Source: a virus
Taxonomy: Duplodnaviria > Heunggongvirae > Uroviricota > Caudoviricetes
Reading direction: 5' to 3' (one strand)
Length of the DNA: 64,000 nt
IMG/VR virus record: IMGVR_UViG_3300028833_000055
Span: 238,446 to 302,445 of that record
In this document: one piece after another, positions 760-9,828 of the stretch
How positions within the stretch are numbered: the stretch's first letter is position 1
Layout of the letters: every line of letters starts with the position of its first letter
Program-made: the position numbers and the translations under genes
Notes under the pieces: model-generated
What the model saw: only the letters and a program-made list of their open reading frames with translations
Told to the model about the DNA's origin: nothing
Databases searched by the model: none

Positions 760-1094
760 AGTATTATGTTTTCATAAAACTCACGTGAAAGGGTGAGTTC
801 GTATCTTCTGTTACCATTTTCATCTTCAAGTATCCAGTAATAATCGAGGAAAGCGTTATTGTCCTCCACACCTATCAACTTGTATTCCTTATAGACCGGT
901 GTTCCGTTCAGTTCATAGAGGACGTTCCTTTTGTCAACCCATTTCTTGCCGATGTATTTTCTAAGGTTTTCAAGGATATGTCCCCAGTTCCCTTCATCGC
1001 TCTTGTGGGCTTCCGCCTCTTCGACCGTATAGAACCTCCATACGTCACCTTCCCTGCCGAATATACCTTTCTGCCTTATGTGTTCCATAATCAA
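756..1094 (-). CDS. Hypothetical phage protein
   Basis: 112 aa ORF tiled with 4-nt overlaps in the operon. Confidence 0.6.
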   Translation of the reverse strand: MIMEHIRQKGIFGREGDVWRFYTVEEAEAHKSDEGNWGHILENLRKYIGKKWVDKRNVLYELNGTPVYKEYKLIGVEDNNAFLDYYWILEDENGNRRYELTLSREFYENIIL

Positions 1095-1912
1095 ACCTTT
1101 TCAACAGTTATGACATTGCCGTCGTTTTTCGTCTGAAAGTTGAGACGCTTGATTTTCTTGATTTCACCGTTATATATTTCAACATCGACACCAAGTCCTT
1201 TCGTAGAGTCTCCCGTTTGTGAGGATATGAAATTGCCTATGGAATAGATTACGGTTTTTCCATTAATTTCATCTTCATCCTCAATGATGTGTGGATGAGA
1301 ACCGATAATCATATCTGCACCATACGATATGATTTTTTTCGCCAGCATTTCCTGCTCTCTCGTATGGACCTTTTCGTACTCTTTGCCCCAGTGCATAATA
1401 AATATAACAATTTTTGCACCGTCTTCACGAACTTTGTCAATGTCTTTTTTCATTGAATTGAAATCGTGTGCGTCATTGTACTTTACACCCTTGTCCTCTA
1501 TGTTCATTTCCGATGTATAATTTATTATGGCGGTTTCCCCGAGTATGACAGGTTCCGGCTTTGAATCGATTGAAACACCGGTATATGCGATTTCATTCGA
1601 TTCAAGGAATGAAATCGTTGACTTTACACCCTTCGCCCCCATATCACATATGTGGTTGTTCGCCAGCATAAAGCAGTTCACACCCGCCTTTATCAGAGAT
1701 GCACAAAATTCCTTCGGTGTCGAAAATTTCGGAAATCCGTTATATGGTCCGTCCGTCAGTACCGTTTCAAGGTTTCCAACCACATAGTCATATTTTGTAA
1801 ACAGTTCCTCCACGTTTGCAAACGACTTGTCAAAATTATAAGTGTCACCATACTTCATTTGGAAAAGCTGCTCGTCGTGACACATAAGGTCTCCTATAAA
1901 TAAAATTTTCAT
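1091..1912 (-). CDS. CapA/PGA_cap-family metallophosphoesterase
   Basis: Motifs FIGDLM, GNLET, LANNHICD, MHWGKEY, IIGSHPH, YSIGNFI. Confidence 0.85.
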   Translation of the reverse strand: MKILFIGDLMCHDEQLFQMKYGDTYNFDKSFANVEELFTKYDYVVGNLETVLTDGPYNGFPKFSTPKEFCASLIKAGVNCFMLANNHICDMGAKGVKSTISFLESNEIAYTGVSIDSKPEPVILGETAIINYTSEMNIEDKGVKYNDAHDFNSMKKDIDKVREDGAKIVIFIMHWGKEYEKVHTREQEMLAKKIISYGADMIIGSHPHIIEDEDEINGKTVIYSIGNFISSQTGDSTKGLGVDVEIYNGEIKKIKRLNFQTKNDGNVITVEKV

Positions 1913-3828
1913 CCCTTATACCATTTTATATTTTTCAAGTCAACCATACAGTTCAGGAAAGCATCGGTTGTGTTTTCAACATTTGGCAGTTTCCATTTCG
2001 AAACATCACCGGCGAATTTTGAATCCTTGAAGCAGTATCTCATATTTTTCACATTACTTACATTCCAGTTCGATATGTCACCGTTAAATACCGATTTTTC
2101 AAACATACTCGAAATGTGTGCCACTTTCAAAACGTTCCAGTTTGATATGTCATTGTTGAACTGACTGCCATAGAACATATGGTTCATAAAAATGCAACTG
2201 TTCGTCTTCCACTGTGAAATGTCACCGTTGAACGATGATTTCATAAACATTCCACTCATATAGACTGCATTTGAGACATTCCATCTTGAAATGTCTCCGT
2301 TGAAAACGGATTCTGCAAACATATAACTCATATCGTTTACTTTTTTAACATTCCATTCCGAAATGTCACCGTTGAATGTCGAATGTCTGAACATCGAATA
2401 CATAGTCTTCACATTCGATGTGTCCCATTGGGAGATGTCTCCGTTAAAGTCCGTGTCATAGAACAAGGCGGACATATCGGTCACACGACTTGTGTCTATA
2501 TGGTTAAGGTCTGCAAATCTTCCTCTCTTCCTTATTTCGTCATCAACGACCTTCTTTATGTTTTCATCGGTCGCTTTTATTCTGCCGCCATACGCTTCAT
2601 CCACGTTAACTTTTTTTTTATCGGGAATAGGTATGGGTTCAAACTTATTTACTTCCAAGAACTTCTTGATTTTGTCGAGTTCCATCATCTGGTCGGGGCC
2701 GATGTTGTATTTCAAGATATCTTCCCTTCCCTTGTCGTCCATCGCCGCAACATAGTTGTAACCGGTGAAATATCCGCTTTCCAACGCACCTCCGTACAAC
2801 TTGCAGTCCCTTACACCCCTCTTCATCCTCACTATCGACTTGAAGACGGTTTTATCTCCAAGGTCAGGACAGAGTTCCTTTATGTAATCATACAGTTCAC
2901 AGAAATCCATTTCATACAGATGGTATGTGATTATGGCCTTTATTGCAATGTTGAACAGAATGTTCGGTTTCGGATTCCTCACCTTGTTGAGCGAATTCCA
3001 CACGGCGAGACCCTCGTCATATGTATTCGCTTCGGGAAGACCGGAAACAAACAACCAGAGACCCGTCTGATATCCGTAGTATCTTCTTCCCACGTGTCCT
3101 TCTATTTCGTGCTGACAAAGACCTTCTATGTCTTCATTGGAGAAATGTGCCTCTGAACTCACCCTGACAATTCCTTCCGGTGTGACATTTACTCTCGGAA
3201 GCATTCCATCGACTATATCGACCTTGTATCCGTATCCGAGTTTGTCTATATATGCCTGGAATTTCTTGGCCGCCTGCTCGGGACCGATGTTTCTTACACC
3301 CGCCTTTACGACTTCATATGGGTGTTCCCTTATGATTTTGAGGGCGTATTCGTATTCATCCCTTGTCGGGAAAGAGCCTCCTCTATCGTGTGGGTTATCC
3401 GGTTTCTCGGGTTTTTCATCGTCCTCCGACATTTCATCGTGTTCCTCCTTCAACTCGATTGACGACAGAAAACCTTTTATTTTTTCTATGTAGAATTTCG
3501 ATATGTAGCTTGAAAAATTCTCAAACTTTGCAAGGAGTTCTTCAAGTTCAGACTTTATGTCAACATCGGTGTCAATCTTTTCCAGTTCAAGTTTTGGAAA
3601 ATATTTCTTTCCCACCCTTCTCGCCTTTATGAATTTCTTGAACTCCTCATCCGTGTTCATAACGTTTTTTGCACGGTATGTTGCACGGAAAAGGAGGGCG
3701 AGTTTTCCATATTTCTTGTCGAGTTCAAGCAGATATTCCTTGTCCTTCTTGTTCAGTTTGAAATACTTGTCTTCTTCTGTCTCCTTGTTCTCCCTTATAT
3801 ACTCATTGAATGAAGGTATTAGTCTCAT
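1909..3828 (-). CDS. DUF1704/MATCAP-like (QEGLA-motif) metallopeptidase fused to BspA/DUF285 repeats; N-terminal T4-like capsid-targeting-type leader
   Basis: HEIEGH (HExxxH) plus DEGLA; about six W(D/N)(T/V)SNVxxMxxMF repeats at C-terminus; N-terminus MRLIPSFNEYIRE. Confidence 0.75.
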   Translation of the reverse strand: MRLIPSFNEYIRENKETEEDKYFKLNKKDKEYLLELDKKYGKLALLFRATYRAKNVMNTDEEFKKFIKARRVGKKYFPKLELEKIDTDVDIKSELEELLAKFENFSSYISKFYIEKIKGFLSSIELKEEHDEMSEDDEKPEKPDNPHDRGGSFPTRDEYEYALKIIREHPYEVVKAGVRNIGPEQAAKKFQAYIDKLGYGYKVDIVDGMLPRVNVTPEGIVRVSSEAHFSNEDIEGLCQHEIEGHVGRRYYGYQTGLWLFVSGLPEANTYDEGLAVWNSLNKVRNPKPNILFNIAIKAIITYHLYEMDFCELYDYIKELCPDLGDKTVFKSIVRMKRGVRDCKLYGGALESGYFTGYNYVAAMDDKGREDILKYNIGPDQMMELDKIKKFLEVNKFEPIPIPDKKKVNVDEAYGGRIKATDENIKKVVDDEIRKRGRFADLNHIDTSRVTDMSALFYDTDFNGDISQWDTSNVKTMYSMFRHSTFNGDISEWNVKKVNDMSYMFAESVFNGDISRWNVSNAVYMSGMFMKSSFNGDISQWKTNSCIFMNHMFYGSQFNNDISNWNVLKVAHISSMFEKSVFNGDISNWNVSNVKNMRYCFKDSKFAGDVSKWKLPNVENTTDAFLNCMVDLKNIKWYKG

Positions 3829-3847
3829 CTAAAAATGTTGTTTGATA

Positions 3848-3855
3848 TATTTATG
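3848..3855 (-). promoter_or_regulatory. T4-like late promoter box CATAAATA
   Basis: Exact CATAAATA about 20 nt upstream of the 3828 start; the same box recurs before other late clusters. Confidence 0.65.
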
Positions 3856-3871
3856 TCCGAAACAATCATTT

Positions 3872-4402
3872 TTATATCACAAGGGGACAGTATTTTGAAA
3901 TAACTATGTAGTCGAATGAGTCGTAGCACACCCTTCCGTCGAGTGTCCATACCTTTCCGTTGGAGATTTGGTGTGCGGTGAGGACAGACAGTTTCTCCTT
4001 ATGGAGTTCATCGTCTTCGTCATACCACATAACAAGGACATTATCGGAAACACTTGTCATCTCCTTCAATGTATCGGCATTGAACAACTTATTGAAGTCC
4101 ACCCATTCGATATTCACGAGATTGTCCATTTCCGGTTTAAATCTCACCACTACTCCCGGATGTTCTACGGGGTCGTCCGAATTTTTGAATATGACTTTAT
4201 TCGGATTCTCCACGACAAAACTTCTAACCTTATCATCGTCACATTCAAGTGATATGAAAAGTTCACGGTCAAAGTAGAGGTCACCACCTTTTTGAAAGAC
4301 TTCCTTATGCATTATCTCGTTGAGTTCGTCCACGAGATTCTCCTTGCCTTCGGATAGAAGTCTGTTTATCTTGTCACAAGTTCTGTTATAGTTCCTTTTC
4401 AT
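3872..4402 (-). CDS. Hypothetical phage protein
   Basis: 176 aa ORF, acidic, directly downstream of the candidate ncRNA. Confidence 0.6.
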   Translation of the reverse strand: MKRNYNRTCDKINRLLSEGKENLVDELNEIMHKEVFQKGGDLYFDRELFISLECDDDKVRSFVVENPNKVIFKNSDDPVEHPGVVVRFKPEMDNLVNIEWVDFNKLFNADTLKEMTSVSDNVLVMWYDEDDELHKEKLSVLTAHQISNGKVWTLDGRVCYDSFDYIVISKYCPLVI

Positions 4403-4626: not shown

Positions 4627-4652
4627 AAAAAAGGGGTTTCTCACCCCTTTTT
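4627..4652 (-). terminator. Rho-independent terminator ending the NAD operon
   Basis: AAAAAAGGGG-tttctca-CCCCTTTT hairpin with flanking A/T tracts. Confidence 0.7.
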
Positions 4653-5778
4653 ATTTTTTTATCCAGTCATCACTTATATACGGACTCTCTTTGAATACGG
4701 CATCCACCGTCATTCCAGTTATCCACTTGATTACTCTTACATCACTGGTAGTCAGTTCCGTATCAGTCTGTAACATAATTCCGTTTATGTCAAGACAGTC
4801 CGGTGAAGGAAATTTACAAAGTCCTTTTTTGTGGAGTTTGCAACTGTGGTGTTCCTTATGGACGACCTTCAAGTCAAACGGAAGTTTCGAAATCAATTCG
4901 TAGTCTATATTTCCATTGTCGATTTCATTCTTGAAACTATGGCATACATCCTTGTTCGGACAACTTGCACAATCCATTTCGTTTGGTCTGTAATAGTGTG
5001 CGTTGTAATCCCTTCCGGTTTTCTGTGAATACGATATGGCACAGGATGTCTTCTTGAAAATAGGAACATTGTACTGCATCGAATGACACTTCAAGTTCCA
5101 TAGAATATCATTGCCGATATTCTTCTTCATACCGAAGTCGTAACCGTCATATGGTCTGAACGGAAGATTGTTCTCCCTTATGTATTCGGAGAGTGTGGCA
5201 TCCACTTGTAAACCCGAATATGCCACCGTTGTAGAGTATTTCTTGGCCAGAGTGAACAATCTGTCCATTGTCTCCGGAGAATCGTTTATATCCCTTATTA
5301 TCGGTCTGTATTCTATTCCATATGTGTATCCGTTCATTTCGGAAATGGATTTGCATACGGAAAGGTTCTCTTCAAGTCTCTCGAATGTCGCCGCTTCGTC
5401 ATACTTCCGGTTTCCGAAGAACGATAGGCCGAAATGTATGTTGAGTTTCCATTTTTTAGTAAAAATCTTTGAGAACATATCGTCCGACATAGGTCCTTTC
5501 GTTATAATGACCACCGGACCCCTGTGGTTTGACGACTCAAGTCTTTTGAGACATTCCAGAGTGTCTTCCATATACAGGAAAGGGTCCCCGTAGAATATGT
5601 TTATCACCACTGGGATTGTATTGAAGAGAGGGTTTATTTCAGAAGAAGGAGTAAGATATTCCTTTTCCTCATATTTCCCTCTCGCTCTGCAATAGGAACA
5701 CCCGAAACATTCCTTGTGCGGCCTACCCATACAGTAGAACGATTTCAGGAAATAATATTTTTCAAGTAAGTTTCCCAT
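4651..5778 (-). CDS. Radical-SAM-like Fe-S protein with atypical Cys spacing
   Basis: N-terminal C-x7-CxxCxYC; INIFYGDPF, VIITKG, YRPII core; extra C-terminal Cys clusters (CASC..KDVC, C..H..GLC....PDC). Confidence 0.55.
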   Translation of the reverse strand: MGNLLEKYYFLKSFYCMGRPHKECFGCSYCRARGKYEEKEYLTPSSEINPLFNTIPVVINIFYGDPFLYMEDTLECLKRLESSNHRGPVVIITKGPMSDDMFSKIFTKKWKLNIHFGLSFFGNRKYDEAATFERLEENLSVCKSISEMNGYTYGIEYRPIIRDINDSPETMDRLFTLAKKYSTTVAYSGLQVDATLSEYIRENNLPFRPYDGYDFGMKKNIGNDILWNLKCHSMQYNVPIFKKTSCAISYSQKTGRDYNAHYYRPNEMDCASCPNKDVCHSFKNEIDNGNIDYELISKLPFDLKVVHKEHHSCKLHKKGLCKFPSPDCLDINGIMLQTDTELTTSDVRVIKWITGMTVDAVFKESPYISDDWIKK

Positions 5779-5782
5779 CCGT

Positions 5783-6625
5783 CTAATGTACTACTATGAA
5801 GTTGTCGTATCCCTTTTCAGCGGCGACCTTGCTCCAATCACGATATGATTCAGTTGCATAAACCTTGTCGAAGTTCTTGCAAAGGTTGTCGAAACCGACT
5901 TCGTTGACGATGTGTGTGACTTTGATGTCGAACTGTGCTTCCGGATAGAGTTCCTTCATCACACTCAACTCACCGAGGAAAGTACCGCCGGCGTCACAAA
6001 GGTCATCATAGAAGAGGAAATGTTTACCGATTTTAATCTTGTCCTGATTTTTTAGGATGAAAGATTTGATTTTACCGGTCTCCAAATCACGTTCCTTTTC
6101 GAAGTAGATTTCCTCCGACTCCTTTCCGTCATATCTTGTCATTGCACCGTGGTCGGGAAAAACGACCTCGATTTTACTGTCAAAGTTGTCAAGAAGGAAA
6201 TGATAGGGGTTCATATCCAGTGAAACACATTCACGCATTTCGAGCATAGTCCTCACACTGTGGGCGGTATAGACATAACATTTCTCGTAACCCATCTGTG
6301 AAATCATCTTGGCGACGATACGGAGGGTGAACGGTCTTTCAAAAGACATCACACGGTCCATTCTCATACCCATCAGGTAATGGATGAAGAGAACCCAGTT
6401 GACACCCTGTCTGTCGAGAATGTCACCGATTTGCAAAAGGATAAACAATTCCTCTGCGTTCGTGATACGACAGTCAACGGTATAGTCCTCTTTACGGTCA
6501 AGCTCCTCCGTGAACACAAATTGTACTTCACCGTCGGGAAAACGGTCGATACGGTATTTCACTTCACTTTTTTCCAAAGAAATTAAATCAATTCTTTTCA
6601 TACTATTCCTGTTTTTCAAATACAA
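5783..6625 (-). CDS. prs: Ribose-phosphate pyrophosphokinase-like protein (Prs; candidate ADPR-PP synthetase)
   Basis: RFPDGE, YLMGMRMDR, VVFPDHGA, FEKER, DDLCDAGGTF PRPP-binding loop; 280 aa. Confidence 0.85.
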   Translation of the reverse strand: MYLKNRNSMKRIDLISLEKSEVKYRIDRFPDGEVQFVFTEELDRKEDYTVDCRITNAEELFILLQIGDILDRQGVNWVLFIHYLMGMRMDRVMSFERPFTLRIVAKMISQMGYEKCYVYTAHSVRTMLEMRECVSLDMNPYHFLLDNFDSKIEVVFPDHGAMTRYDGKESEEIYFEKERDLETGKIKSFILKNQDKIKIGKHFLFYDDLCDAGGTFLGELSVMKELYPEAQFDIKVTHIVNEVGFDNLCKNFDKVYATESYRDWSKVAAEKGYDNFIVVH

Positions 6626-7346
6626 GCATTTTGTTTTTAGCCACAGCCCTTCTGTGCATCCTTTCTATCTTACCGAGTTTTTCGTCGGTAGGAAGTTTTC
6701 CGTCAAGGAGATAGGAATCTATTTCGGCATATGAAACTCCGAGACTCTGTTCATCTGTCACATAACTTCCGTCTTCGTTTGTGTTCAGTCCGTCAATCGG
6801 GGTCTTGTGTACAAGATGATGGGGAAGTCCGAGAAAATCACCGATTTTAAGGATTTCTCTTACGGTCAGGTTTCCAAGAGGGGAAAAATCACCTGCGGCA
6901 TCTCCATGTTTTGTGCTGTACCCGACATAATCCTCACTTCTGTTGCAAGTGTTGGCTACACGTCCGTTGTTTGACTGGCTGATGGCGTAGAGTGTTGACA
7001 TACGGATTCTCGCCGGGAGATTTGTCAAGGACTGTTCGGACAAGTCGAAACCGATTGCATTCTTGACCGCTTCGACGGTCGGACCTATATTCACCGTATA
7101 GTTCTTGATACCGAGTAAGTTGCAGACTTCGATTGAGTCAGCAATGTCCTTCTGTTCCCCGTTTGGCATCATAACTCCGATTACACGGTCTTTGCCGAGA
7201 GCCGCCACACAAAGTGCTGCTACAACGGTGGAATCCTTTCCACCGCTTATTGCAACACAACAATTACAATCTGGTCCATTTTTTTCAAACCAATTACGAA
7301 TCCATTCGATGATGTCTGTTGTAAGTTTTATTGTATCCATAAACAT
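6603..7346 (-). CDS. nadE: NH3-dependent NAD+ synthetase
   Basis: AISGGKDS PP-loop, NLPARIRMSTLY, NTCNRSEDYVGYSTKHGD, DFSPLGNL; no glutaminase domain. Confidence 0.93.
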   Translation of the reverse strand: MFMDTIKLTTDIIEWIRNWFEKNGPDCNCCVAISGGKDSTVVAALCVAALGKDRVIGVMMPNGEQKDIADSIEVCNLLGIKNYTVNIGPTVEAVKNAIGFDLSEQSLTNLPARIRMSTLYAISQSNNGRVANTCNRSEDYVGYSTKHGDAAGDFSPLGNLTVREILKIGDFLGLPHHLVHKTPIDGLNTNEDGSYVTDEQSLGVSYAEIDSYLLDGKLPTDEKLGKIERMHRRAVAKNKMLVFEKQE

Positions 7347-7354
7347 TCCTCTTT

Positions 7355-8842
7355 TTAATTTTCCGATGCAAGTCTTTTACGAATTTCAGTGAACCTTTCG
7401 TAGTTGTACATTTTACCGTCTAGAAACACGAGTCTCATAGCGTTTTCGTGCTTTTTACCGTATTCACAGTATTCATCTTCATTAAATCCGTCGGTCGCCT
7501 TGAAACCGTCTTCGGTCTTCTCGACAAACACAAGACCTCTGTGAGATTTCTTCAGATGGTTGGTGTCGGTCTTCGGGTCCTTGTAAATCCGAACCTCCTT
7601 ACCATTAACAATGGCATAAGTTGCTTTGCAAGCACATCCGTACATGTCACGAGTGTTGACAATCAGTCTGTCGCCCTCGAATACGACCTTGAAGCAGAAT
7701 GCTCCGATACCGAACACCACATTGCTGGCGGCGAAACCCATTTCATCGAGTTTCTTCCAAATCTTACGGAGCTGCAACAATGTACATCCGTCCCCCCATA
7801 TAAGTCCGATGTGCGGGTCGAGAACCTTGTATCCTTTCGAATTTACGGTTCCGCCGAATACATCCCAGAACTTCTGTATCGTACCGACTGCGATTTCAAC
7901 CATATCTCCGCTGTCGGGTCTGATGAGGAGTTTTCCGTTGTGTTCAAGGATTTCCTTCTTGCAAGCGGGAACTATATTGTTGACAACATTCCAGTAGTCG
8001 TATGTGTCACCGAGAAAACTGAACGACTTGTCCTTGAAAGTGTCGGTGAGGAACTTTTTCAGAAGCGTCTCCTCGTCCACACCTATTCCGGCGTTGCAGG
8101 AAATAACCGAGTGTTCTGTGGAAATAGCACCGATACCGATGTGGTTGTATTCGGTGTGGGCGCTGTAATACTTGTCAATGTATGGAAGCGCCGGTATGGT
8201 AGATGTCTTGTTTGAAGAAAGCAGCCAAGCGGCGGCGGTCCTTGCAGAAACCTCAAGGCAGTCGTCACCTCTCATATCGAAGTTGGAGAAGGCGTTACGT
8301 GGGTCGAGGTTGTCGTCCGAGTTCTTGTCATACCAGTACTTTGCAAGACGGTAGTACATATTTCCTATTGTTGCGTCATTGCAGATTTTCCACAATTCCA
8401 CCTGAAGGAGACATTCAACCCACTGTACCAGCCAGGCGAAGTCCTTATGTGTGTTGATGAGTTCTATGCAGGGAATACCCATATTTACCTTGCTTCCTTC
8501 GGGAAGAGCCCTGATTTGAAGAGGGAGGTATCCGAGTTTGTGAAGTTTCACGATAGGTTCGATTTTGTAGAACCCGTCAAGCTGAACATCCATCGCACGC
8601 TCATAGGTCTCGATTATTTCCTTTTCGCTCTTCTCGAAGAAGTTTTTGTTGAAATAGTCGATGAGGTATTCCTGAATGAAGGCCTGAAGTCCGAACCACA
8701 CCATCTTCTGGTTCTCTTCCTTCTCAAAATAGCTTTTCCTTGGTACCCAGTATGAAACAAGGTGAGAGAGACCTTCGGGGTACATCATATTGTGGACAGT
8801 CTTGTATGTGTCACACAACAACATTGGATTCATATCCATCAT
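7355..8842 (-). CDS. NAMPT/NadV-fold phosphoribosyltransferase (probably nicotinate-specific; Namat-like)
   Basis: CDTYK..H, STEHSV, DTYD, LLIRPDSGD, GLIWGDG, TRD...KAT, KKSHRG; Ser at the position equivalent to NAMPT Asp219. Confidence 0.9.
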   Translation of the reverse strand: MMDMNPMLLCDTYKTVHNMMYPEGLSHLVSYWVPRKSYFEKEENQKMVWFGLQAFIQEYLIDYFNKNFFEKSEKEIIETYERAMDVQLDGFYKIEPIVKLHKLGYLPLQIRALPEGSKVNMGIPCIELINTHKDFAWLVQWVECLLQVELWKICNDATIGNMYYRLAKYWYDKNSDDNLDPRNAFSNFDMRGDDCLEVSARTAAAWLLSSNKTSTIPALPYIDKYYSAHTEYNHIGIGAISTEHSVISCNAGIGVDEETLLKKFLTDTFKDKSFSFLGDTYDYWNVVNNIVPACKKEILEHNGKLLIRPDSGDMVEIAVGTIQKFWDVFGGTVNSKGYKVLDPHIGLIWGDGCTLLQLRKIWKKLDEMGFAASNVVFGIGAFCFKVVFEGDRLIVNTRDMYGCACKATYAIVNGKEVRIYKDPKTDTNHLKKSHRGLVFVEKTEDGFKATDGFNEDEYCEYGKKHENAMRLVFLDGKMYNYERFTEIRKRLASEN

Positions 8843-8862: not shown

Positions 8863-9375
8863 TTATTCTACTACGTTTACTTGACAGCTCTTCATAACTT
8901 CGAGAGCGGCGTTGTGCCTGATGAGTGTTGTACCCGAGCATCCGTTGGCGAGAACGGTAACTTTGAGTTCGGGAAAGATGGACTTGACCATAAGCACATT
9001 GGATACGATACAGATATCCGTACAAGTGCCTACAAAGACGGCCTCGTCACAATCTTCGAGTTCAAGAGTCCACCCTACATATCCGAATGTATCCTTAAAG
9101 ACCGTATTGCCGATGTTGGAGTATGGTTTCAGTTCATCCACTATCTCCCAGCCTTCCGTCTTATGGATGCAATGTTTCACCGGAAGGTTCTTCCCCTCCT
9201 GTGTGTCGAGATAATTCTCGAAGTGTGTGTCCTTTGTGAAAATGATTTTTGAATAATTTCCCGATTCGATTTCAGACTTGATAAACGGGATGGTTTTTAA
9301 TGCAGCCGGATTTGTGAGAGAACCCGTAACGAAGTCGTTCTGCATATCAACGACTATAAGTGCTTTGTTTGACAT
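8863..9375 (-). CDS. pncA: Nicotinamidase (isochorismatase family)
   Basis: ALIVVDMQNDFV.GSL, TKDTH, KHC, FKDTFG, VGTCTDICIVSN; start taken at MSNKAL. Confidence 0.9.
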   Translation of the reverse strand: MSNKALIVVDMQNDFVTGSLTNPAALKTIPFIKSEIESGNYSKIIFTKDTHFENYLDTQEGKNLPVKHCIHKTEGWEIVDELKPYSNIGNTVFKDTFGYVGWTLELEDCDEAVFVGTCTDICIVSNVLMVKSIFPELKVTVLANGCSGTTLIRHNAALEVMKSCQVNVVE

Positions 9376-9477
9376 AACTATATAAGTTTTGGTTATTACT
9401 AAGTAGTTTCGGAACATCATCCAGACCTTATGGCGGTAATATATACCGCCGGTCGGACTTATCTCCTTGTTACCAAT

Positions 9478-9828
9478 TTATTTATTCTTCTTGTGCCAGA
9501 ATTCTATGAATCCGTTTTTGCTCTGCTGTTCGAGAAGCGAAACATACGCCTTGAATGTTTCAAACGGTTCGTATGTGAACTCCATCTTTCCGGTCTTTCT
9601 GTCCATAATGGACGATACGACCATATTCGGGTTTCTCTTGTCGAGTGAAATCCAGTCGTTGGAGTTTCCACGATATGCACGTTTCCCTTTTCTTATGTGA
9701 GAGACGAACTCCTCTGCGGTTCTGAAATGATATTCGTTGAAGTGCTCGATGTCGTTTTTCTTCTCGTTCTTCAACATCTTTCTCACATTCTGTCTTGACT
9801 TTTCGTCCATCATTGAAAAAATATCCAT
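9478..9828 (-). CDS. Hypothetical early protein
   Basis: Directly downstream of the TATCTTTG box at about 9855; first gene of the NAD transcription unit. Confidence 0.6.
   Translation of the reverse strand: MDIFSMMDEKSRQNVRKMLKNEKKNDIEHFNEYHFRTAEEFVSHIRKGKRAYRGNSNDWISLDKRNPNMVVSSIMDRKTGKMEFTYEPFETFKAYVSLLEQQSKNGFIEFWHKKNK

Follow-up and report, generated by a model that had tools for sequence, protein, structure and literature searches.

A Namat-clade enzyme with an altered base pocket in a giant rumen phage and a possible nicotinate route to NAD+

Which base, and which ribosyl donor, does a NAMPT-fold enzyme use when a phage encodes it between a nicotinamidase and an NAD+ synthetase? The question is raised by a 64,000-nucleotide stretch of DNA from a giant rumen phage (positions 238,446 to 302,445 of IMG/VR record IMGVR_UViG_3300028833_000055; referred to below as the window, with positions counted from its first letter), in which the minus-strand gene at 7355-8842 encodes an enzyme of 495 residues with the type II phosphoribosyltransferase (PRT) fold. 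Its relatives include Namat, the nicotinamide ADP-ribose transferase of NARP1, the phage pathway that reconstitutes nicotinamide adenine dinucleotide (NAD+). As argued below, loss of the residues that read nicotinamide, together with the added PncA and NadE, points to a four-enzyme variant of NARP1 that would pass through nicotinate; a probability of roughly 0.6 is assigned to that full pathway.

The enzyme and its pyridine pocket

The window transferase matches the NAPRTase domain PF04095 (80 bits) and the NAMPT_N domain PF18127 (32 bits), each above its cutoff, and phrog_448 at E 1e-149. (It also matches NCBIfam model NF006629, whose name, 'nicotinate phosphoribosyltransferase', is that model's label for NAMPT-type proteins and is no evidence on substrate.) Its best sequence match in the PDB by HMMER is the Namat of phage SPbetaL1 (9W5W/9W5X, E 1e-104), followed by Haemophilus ducreyi NadV (9KE8, 5e-92) and then by human NAMPT (about 1e-46). 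Confidence is high in the AlphaFold2 model (mean pLDDT 95, pTM 0.93), for which 33 aligned sequences were used, and Foldseek ranks the Namat crystal structures first (TM-score 0.91, root-mean-square deviation 1.8 Å), ahead of NadV (0.87) and human NAMPT (0.85). An earlier reading made from the sequence only had called this a NAMPT-fold enzyme and had proposed structure prediction and superposition on NAMPT and Namat as a check: the fold is borne out, but the nearest solved relative, by sequence and by fold, is phage Namat and not NAMPT. The operon found no match among GenBank phages by megablast, and tblastn found no cultured phage above 43% identity.

The catalytic apparatus is that of the superfamily. 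Glu243 and His244, the latter the catalytic (phospho-)histidine (codon 8111..8113; this and all other coordinates given for the operon refer to the minus strand), are invariant in our alignment A1 and lie opposite the EH247 motif of the human enzyme; Arg308, Asp310 and Arg398 (human R311, D313 and R392) are equally invariant. With Namat, which is known from SPbetaL1, Bas63 and Paenibacillus foliorum (PMC12774641; bioRxiv 10.1101/2024.02.11.579819), the window enzyme shares the dimeric type II PRT core, the catalytic His, the equivalents of Arg306 and Asp308, and the stacking residues Phe189 and Tyr15. The NAMPT/NadV enzymes (human NAMPT, H. ducreyi NadV and the phage KVP40 NadV of NARP2) have the same two Pfam domains and the same catalytic machinery. 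In contrast, NAMPT is the more distant relative, uses phosphoribosyl pyrophosphate (PRPP) and keeps Asp219, His191, Gly217 and Ala244, and phage NAMPT/NadV is paired with a nicotinamide mononucleotide adenylyltransferase that is absent here.

The base pocket is where the window enzyme departs from both. An ungapped alignment made by hand had placed a Ser opposite human Asp219, and HMMER alignments agree: S-S-N-K-T-S214-T of the query lies opposite S-F-T-G-T-D215-T of SPbetaL1 Namat (9W5X numbering), and against human NAMPT (4O1A, native numbering) Ser214 pairs with Asp219, Lys212 with residue 217 and Ser186 with His191, with F193 and R196 of the human enzyme in register. (Both peptides on which the sequence-only reading relied are found in the 7355-8842 open reading frame, ORF.) Ser214 (codon 8201..8203) stands, therefore, where Asp215 hydrogen-bonds the nicotinamide amide in the Namat crystal structure (PMC12774641). 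The corresponding bond of Asp219 has been described as designating nicotinamide as the substrate of NAMPT; of the published mutants, Namat D215A loses activity 8-fold, human D219A is listed as inactive, and human D219S is listed as switching substrate affinity. Neither Ser214 nor the loop insertion taken up below is a chance or sequencing oddity, since both recur in related proteins from many contigs; mean pLDDT is 95 through both regions.

Ser214 is one part of a wider change. All alignment columns were ranked by how well they separate the enzymes with an acidic residue at this position (Asp-type) from those without (non-Asp), and the best-separating columns are D215, H187, A242, G213 and S239 in Namat numbering. 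The first is Asp in 98% of the Asp-type enzymes; in the non-Asp clade it is Ala in 58% and Ser in 40%, the residue of the window enzyme thus being the minority state. At Ser186 (codon 8285..8287; Namat His187, human His191) Asp-type enzymes have His in 99% of cases and the non-Asp clade has Ser, Gly or Cys; at Ser241 (codon 8120..8122; Namat Ala242, human Ala244) the exchange is of Ala (98%) for Ser (96%); at Lys212 (codon 8207..8209; Namat and human Gly213 and Gly217) Gly (99%) gives way to Lys (50%) or Asn (27%); and at Gly238 (Namat Ser239, human Ser241) Ser (92%) gives way to Gly (83%). The window enzyme accordingly differs from Namat by Asp215 to Ser, Ala242 to Ser, Gly213 to Lys and His187 to Ser, as well as by a change of Ser391 to Ala in the adenine clamp. 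The published nicotinamide pocket of Namat includes Asp215 and Ala242, and mutation of His191, Gly217 or Ala244 of human NAMPT blocks the binding of inhibitors in the pyridine tunnel. By this comparison of sequences the discriminating changes concentrate on the base site, as a change of base specificity predicts. A clade with mostly Ala at the Asp215 position is unlikely to work on nicotinamide, and it is plausible that Lys or Asn at 212 and Ser241 contact the carboxylate of nicotinate. (An exchange of S190 for Asp, in the motif FDMRG, was considered as a further marker of the clade and discarded: other non-Asp enzymes keep Ser or Gly.)

Neighbouring genes and the loss of the aspartate

The transferase is the second gene in a unit of five minus-strand genes with successive gaps of 20, 8, -23 and 4 nt, which encode, in order of transcription, an isochorismatase-fold protein, the transferase, NadE, a Prs-like protein and a Cys-rich ORF. 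The first (8863..9420; 185 residues; Pfam Isochorismatase, 71 bits) is PncA-like: aligned with Pyrococcus horikoshii PncA (1ILW) it shows the same catalytic Asp and Cys and the D-x-H...H metal site specific to nicotinamidases, with a Lys nearby, not exactly in register. NadE (6603..7346; 247 residues) is an NAD+ synthetase of one domain, lacking a glutaminase domain (PF02540, 172 bits; TIGR00552, 163 bits, cutoff 63.65), and its end is overlapped by 23 nt by the start of the Prs-like gene (5783..6625; 280 residues). The 375-residue Cys-rich ORF (4651..5778) begins 4 nt further on; its sole match, to the radical-SAM maturase HxsC, is weak (23.5 bits against a cutoff of 268), and since it has no homologue in any related locus it is probably not a core component of the pathway. 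The unit ends at a terminator-like hairpin flanked by T/A runs (4628..4652, a consensus match only).

Does this company go with the loss of the aspartate? Viral contigs were scanned for related loci (76 in a first scan, with further scans bringing the number of distinct transferase proteins to 79) and the neighbours within 6 kb of each transferase were counted. Every one of the 62 homologues that are non-Asp or have the insertion has PncA and/or NadE beside it, and 56 have PncA, an Adps-like gene (the family of the Prs-like protein, as argued below) and NadE together. These 56 comprise 52 Ala-type and 4 Ser-type proteins, all with the insertion; the remaining six are 5 Ala-type proteins, also with the insertion, that have two or one of the three genes (several lie at contig ends), and one fragment, with the insertion, in which the column is unreadable and the neighbour is NadE. 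All 17 Asp-type homologues lack the insertion and have an Adps-like gene only (16) or none of the three (1). Among the 79 there are no exceptions in either direction.

The Ala-type contigs include many close relatives, and an exhaustive search was therefore drawn on as well, with 150 representatives of clusters at 50% identity. In these the Asp215 column is Asp in 99, Glu in 2, Ala in 28, Ser in 19 and Val in 1, that is to say acidic in 101 and Ala, Ser or Val in 48. The source contigs of 10 divergent non-Asp representatives were looked up, of which 9 were informative. NAD synthase is adjacent in all 9, and 8 of the 9 also have the isochorismatase and a Prs-like gene of about 285 residues; the Prs-like genes tested from these loci belong to phrog_619, and no adenylyltransferase was seen in the cassettes that were read gene by gene. 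The nine span the Ala, Ser and Val types. Because they include five enzymes without the insertion, the association with PncA and NadE goes with the loss of Asp and not with the insertion. (Of six representatives without the insertion that were looked up, the neighbourhood could be read in five, and the cassette is there in each, in whole or in part; the insertion has accordingly been dropped as a determinant of the association.) Scans for related loci with P0033 as the query found nothing, and with P0012 mostly the same contigs again; the contig of P0012 itself is too short for its neighbours to be read.

A survey of whether Ser co-occurs with pncA and nadE among phage homologues was one of the checks proposed by the sequence-only reading, and its outcome is that loss of Asp tracks PncA/NadE in every locus examined. 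The companion proposal, that the substrate is nicotinate, in keeping with the flanking pncA and nadE, draws support at the level of sequence from this linkage, from the changed pocket and from the D215A and D219A/S mutants. Short of proof, nicotinate is quite probably the base.

How often the association arose is a separate matter. A tree of 142 representatives, made with the tested segments removed, places the non-Asp enzymes in one clade of 42 (support 0.94) and a trio, and parsimony assigns them a single change from Asp to non-Asp. Within the clade identity falls to 35-40% and the column alternates among Ala, Ser and Val; there is neither a return to Asp nor a loss of the cassette. The gene order is PncA-transferase-NadE-Adps in the window and in locus L158, and PncA-Adps-transferase-NadE in locus L001 and the Ala-type phages. 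Maintenance of the cassette through this divergence, the change of gene order and the Ala/Ser/Val interchange argues for functional coupling.

Several other features of these relatives came to light. Many of the representatives between P0004 and P0151 are proteins of 530-1114 residues that match in two or three stretches broken near query residues 230-330, a pattern suggestive of inteins, or of insertions of homing endonucleases, in the gene family. The N-terminal extensions of P0020 and P0048 were considered as possible informative fusions and set aside: that of P0020 has homing-endonuclease-like HNH_3 and AP2 matches, and that of P0048 contains nothing recognisable. In one locus (L166:128-4614) the cassette, consisting of an Adps-like gene, PncA, an Ala-type transferase and NadE, adjoins a chemoreceptor gene and is preceded by an NrtR winged-helix-domain protein (30.7 bits against a cutoff of 27); it resembles a bacterial or prophage copy and may be controlled by an NAD/ADP-ribose-responsive regulator. 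Elsewhere the cassette has other neighbours of a counter-defence or ADP-ribose kind: a Tad2-like gene in one locus (L169:10217-10510), and a Macro-domain gene and an RNA ligase in another (L174:4079-4546 and 2663-3976).

The ribosyl donor

The Prs-like neighbour (5783..6625) falls far below every NCBIfam cutoff for PRPP synthetase (PRPS), scoring, for example, 66 bits against 113. It belongs to phrog_619 (167 bits), and so does the validated Adps of phage ICP1 (285 bits), whose sequence was taken from its genome record in a numbering that reproduces the published residues exactly. The two proteins have the same length (280 residues) and the same short C-terminus, which is given as a signature of the Adps family (PMC13586617), and the window protein keeps F18, R87, H121, D161, K185, D212, D213, C215, D216 and F221. 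In contrast, it is only about 21% identical to ICP1 Adps, has Met for Phe92 and Gly for Phe223, and the two PP-loops differ (AGGT vs GAAS); Adps structures are not among its PDB sequence matches. Judged by these sequence features, the neighbour is a member of the Adps family and not of the PRPS family, so that an Adps-family gene lies in the same operon as the transferase, as it does in NARP1.

The Adps-like gene of the window is 72% identical to its counterpart in L158 (9235-10053) and 27% identical to that in L001 (5160-5912), and the corresponding figures for the transferase are 67% and 63%; an exchange of Adps partners between cassettes seems to have taken place. One family of 547 positions, phrog_12872, is matched by Prs-like proteins over approximately positions 5-235 and by the transferase over approximately 375-538. 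It looks like a natural Adps-Namat fusion and, if that is what it is, would provide an independent link between the two activities.

In Namat the AMP moiety is gripped by a selectivity clamp, one half of which is the adenine-clamp helix (SCH): Phe392 and Tyr396 stack on the adenine (PMC12774641). The counterpart in the window enzyme, G380-D399 (7646..7705), is remodelled. It reads G380-A-F-C-F-K, V386-VFEGDRL-I394 and V-N-T-R-D399, where Namat has G390-S-F-T-Y-Q-Y-N-T-R-D400; position 3 of the signature is kept (Phe382 for Phe392), Ser391 is replaced by Ala381, and position 7, that of Tyr396, is not kept. The sequence-only reading had noted about 10 extra residues before TRD. The alignment makes them a 9-residue insertion, V386-I394 (7661..7687), which Namat, H. 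ducreyi NadV and human NAMPT all lack, and AlphaFold2 models them, with flanking residues, as an ordered beta-hairpin that follows a short helix (strands 386-389 and 392-395, pLDDT 92-93 for the block). In the aligned sequences and the model, the place of the second adenine-stacking residue of the Namat clamp is taken by the hairpin, which often carries an acidic residue (Glu389 here). The other element of the clamp, the beta1-beta2 loop (SCL), conforms to the published rule, which calls for Arg, Lys or Tyr at the third position and, in the case of Tyr, makes the next residue the stacking one (PMC12774641): Tyr38-Phe39 (8726..8731) lies at the place of Namat Arg40-Val41.

Of the non-Asp enzymes most have the insertion; 10 representatives lack it. 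Basal members of the non-Asp group (for example P0011, P0028 and P0044) have no insertion and carry the canonical Namat clamp, GSY-YQY-TRD, with the SCH signature intact. Because non-Asp enzymes without the insertion carry the same cassette, the insertion is placed as a later feature of a subclade, predicted to remove the Tyr396-type stacking position and to add the hairpin. The term 'phosphate loop', which the sequence-only reading had applied to the segment, is too simple, the counterpart in Namat being the adenine-clamp helix. Its suggestion that the altered loop could accommodate the AMP moiety divides in two: Namat does bind that moiety with this segment, but canonical Namat does so with 11 residues and no insertion, and the basal members likewise lack one.

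The Adps-family partner, the Namat clamp of the basal members, adherence to the SCL rule, the lack of PF01467 and the single PF04095 gene in the phage genome (see below) argue together that ADP-ribose pyrophosphate (ADPR-PP) is the likely donor.

A candidate nicotinate route to NAD+

We infer the following scheme, its two substrates, its product and its anti-defence role included, from the family, the residue changes and the conserved neighbourhood. A host defence NADase would split NAD+ into ADP-ribose and nicotinamide. The phage nicotinamidase would convert nicotinamide to nicotinate and ammonia, while the Adps-like enzyme would pyrophosphorylate ADP-ribose with ATP, yielding ADPR-PP. The window transferase would then join nicotinate and ADPR-PP to form deamido-NAD (NaAD) and pyrophosphate; NaAD would thus arise in one step, and neither a mononucleotide intermediate nor an adenylyltransferase would be needed. 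NadE would amidate NaAD to NAD+ at the expense of a second ATP, and the ammonia from the nicotinamidase step could be reused. Canonical NARP1, a two-enzyme system that makes NAD+ straight from ADP-ribose and nicotinamide, has neither PncA nor NadE. The feature would thus be a variant of NARP1 that implies an undescribed enzyme reaction, and the odds lean slightly towards the broader statement that the clade as a whole catalyses this reaction, bypassing nicotinic acid mononucleotide (NaMN) and NadD, with the subclade of the window having swapped half of its adenine clamp for a beta-hairpin.

Among the nearest known pathways is Preiss-Handler salvage (PncA, PncB, NadD, NadE), which also begins with PncA, ends with NadE and has nicotinate and NaAD as intermediates. 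In contrast to that pathway, the phage has no PncB-type nicotinate phosphoribosyltransferase and no NadD: in the 363-kb phage genome, which is 96% complete, the window transferase is the only gene with PF04095, and no adenylyltransferase of PF01467 was found (as a control, PF01467 was found in 14 of 14 genomes). The two central steps of Preiss-Handler salvage seem to have given way to Adps and one transferase acting on ADP-ribose.

Several points weigh against the four-enzyme scheme. The window enzyme fails the published SCH signature of Namat (Ala in place of Ser391, the Tyr396 position displaced by the insertion), and its preference for ADPR-PP over PRPP is for that reason less secure than that of the basal members. 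The window's Adps-like partner has Met where ICP1 Adps contacts adenine with Phe92. PDB entries 6TA0/6TA2 show nicotinic acid bound to human NAMPT, and Asp219 is therefore not a complete bar to the binding of nicotinate. The tree, with its single change from Asp to non-Asp, makes the link with PncA and NadE one ancient, retained event rather than many independent ones. NadD, finally, is near-universal in hosts, and it could take the place of the missing phage adenylyltransferase in a mononucleotide route.

Such a route is the substance of the alternative that survives best, unlikely as we consider it to be. The enzyme would be a nicotinate PRT on a NAMPT scaffold, making NaMN from nicotinate and PRPP, with the Prs-like protein supplying PRPP, host NadD and phage NadE finishing the synthesis, and the whole amounting to a phage Preiss-Handler pathway in place of one that recycles ADP-ribose. 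The base-pocket changes and the linkage with PncA/NadE fit it equally well, the departure of the query's adenine clamp from the Namat signature speaks for it, Namat itself has been reported to use PRPP in vitro, and host NadD is expected to be available. It has to contend with a partner that shares with ICP1 Adps its PHROG, the Cys215-Asp216 PP-loop, Phe18 and the truncated C-terminus while lying far below the PRPS cutoffs, with the full Namat clamp of basal clade members, and with the lack of an adenylyltransferase both in the cassettes read gene by gene and in the 96%-complete genome.

That the enzyme still uses nicotinamide, or both bases, is doubtful for other reasons. It would then produce NAD+ as in canonical NARP1, and PncA and NadE would constitute a co-located but separate branch feeding host PncB and NadD. 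Human D219S reportedly alters substrate use without abolishing it, which would allow promiscuity in a Ser-type enzyme, and a single origin allows co-inheritance without direct coupling. Yet Ala, the residue of most of the clade, severely impairs the use of nicotinamide by Namat and NAMPT alike; four further pocket positions have changed in concert; the adjacent nicotinamidase would compete for the enzyme's own substrate; and the linkage survives changes of gene order and divergence to below 40% identity with no reversion to Asp. Some other pyridine or heterocyclic acceptor, giving an NAD analogue in place of NaAD, would suit a broadly remodelled pocket and an operon that ends with an uncharacterised Cys-rich protein, but it is very improbable, PncA and NadE being the exact enzymes that make nicotinate and consume NaAD and the Cys-rich gene not being conserved in related loci.

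Some other genes of the window lie outside the operon. The 116-residue ORF just upstream of pncA (9478-9828, minus strand) was assigned to no family; L158 has a counterpart to it, 41% identical, in the same place. A 639-residue protein (1091-3828, minus strand) combines a MATCAP-like peptidase domain with DUF285 repeats and adjoins a PGA_cap/metallophosphatase protein.

NAD+ depletion is among the commonest anti-phage strategies of bacteria; of the phage responses known, NARP1 is the main one. NARP1, NARP2, NARP3 and a phosphatase add-on to NARP1 have been described, and the NAD genes of jumbo phages have been catalogued by KEGG annotation; in the literature searched, Namat or NARP1 is not connected with nicotinate, NaAD, PncA or NadE in any paper. 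The non-Asp form accounts for about a third of the closest cluster representatives (48 of 150) and for most of the viral contigs recovered. If the four-enzyme scheme is correct, it would join the logics of Preiss-Handler salvage and NARP1, and current annotations of these genes as NAMPT, nicotinate phosphoribosyltransferase and PRPP synthetase would have to be corrected. The clade would also offer a natural experiment in base recognition by the NAMPT fold, carried out at four positions that are also sites of drug resistance in human NAMPT. The nicotinate-route form would add a new enzyme activity to NAD metabolism, and would explain why many gut and rumen phages carry pncA and nadE.

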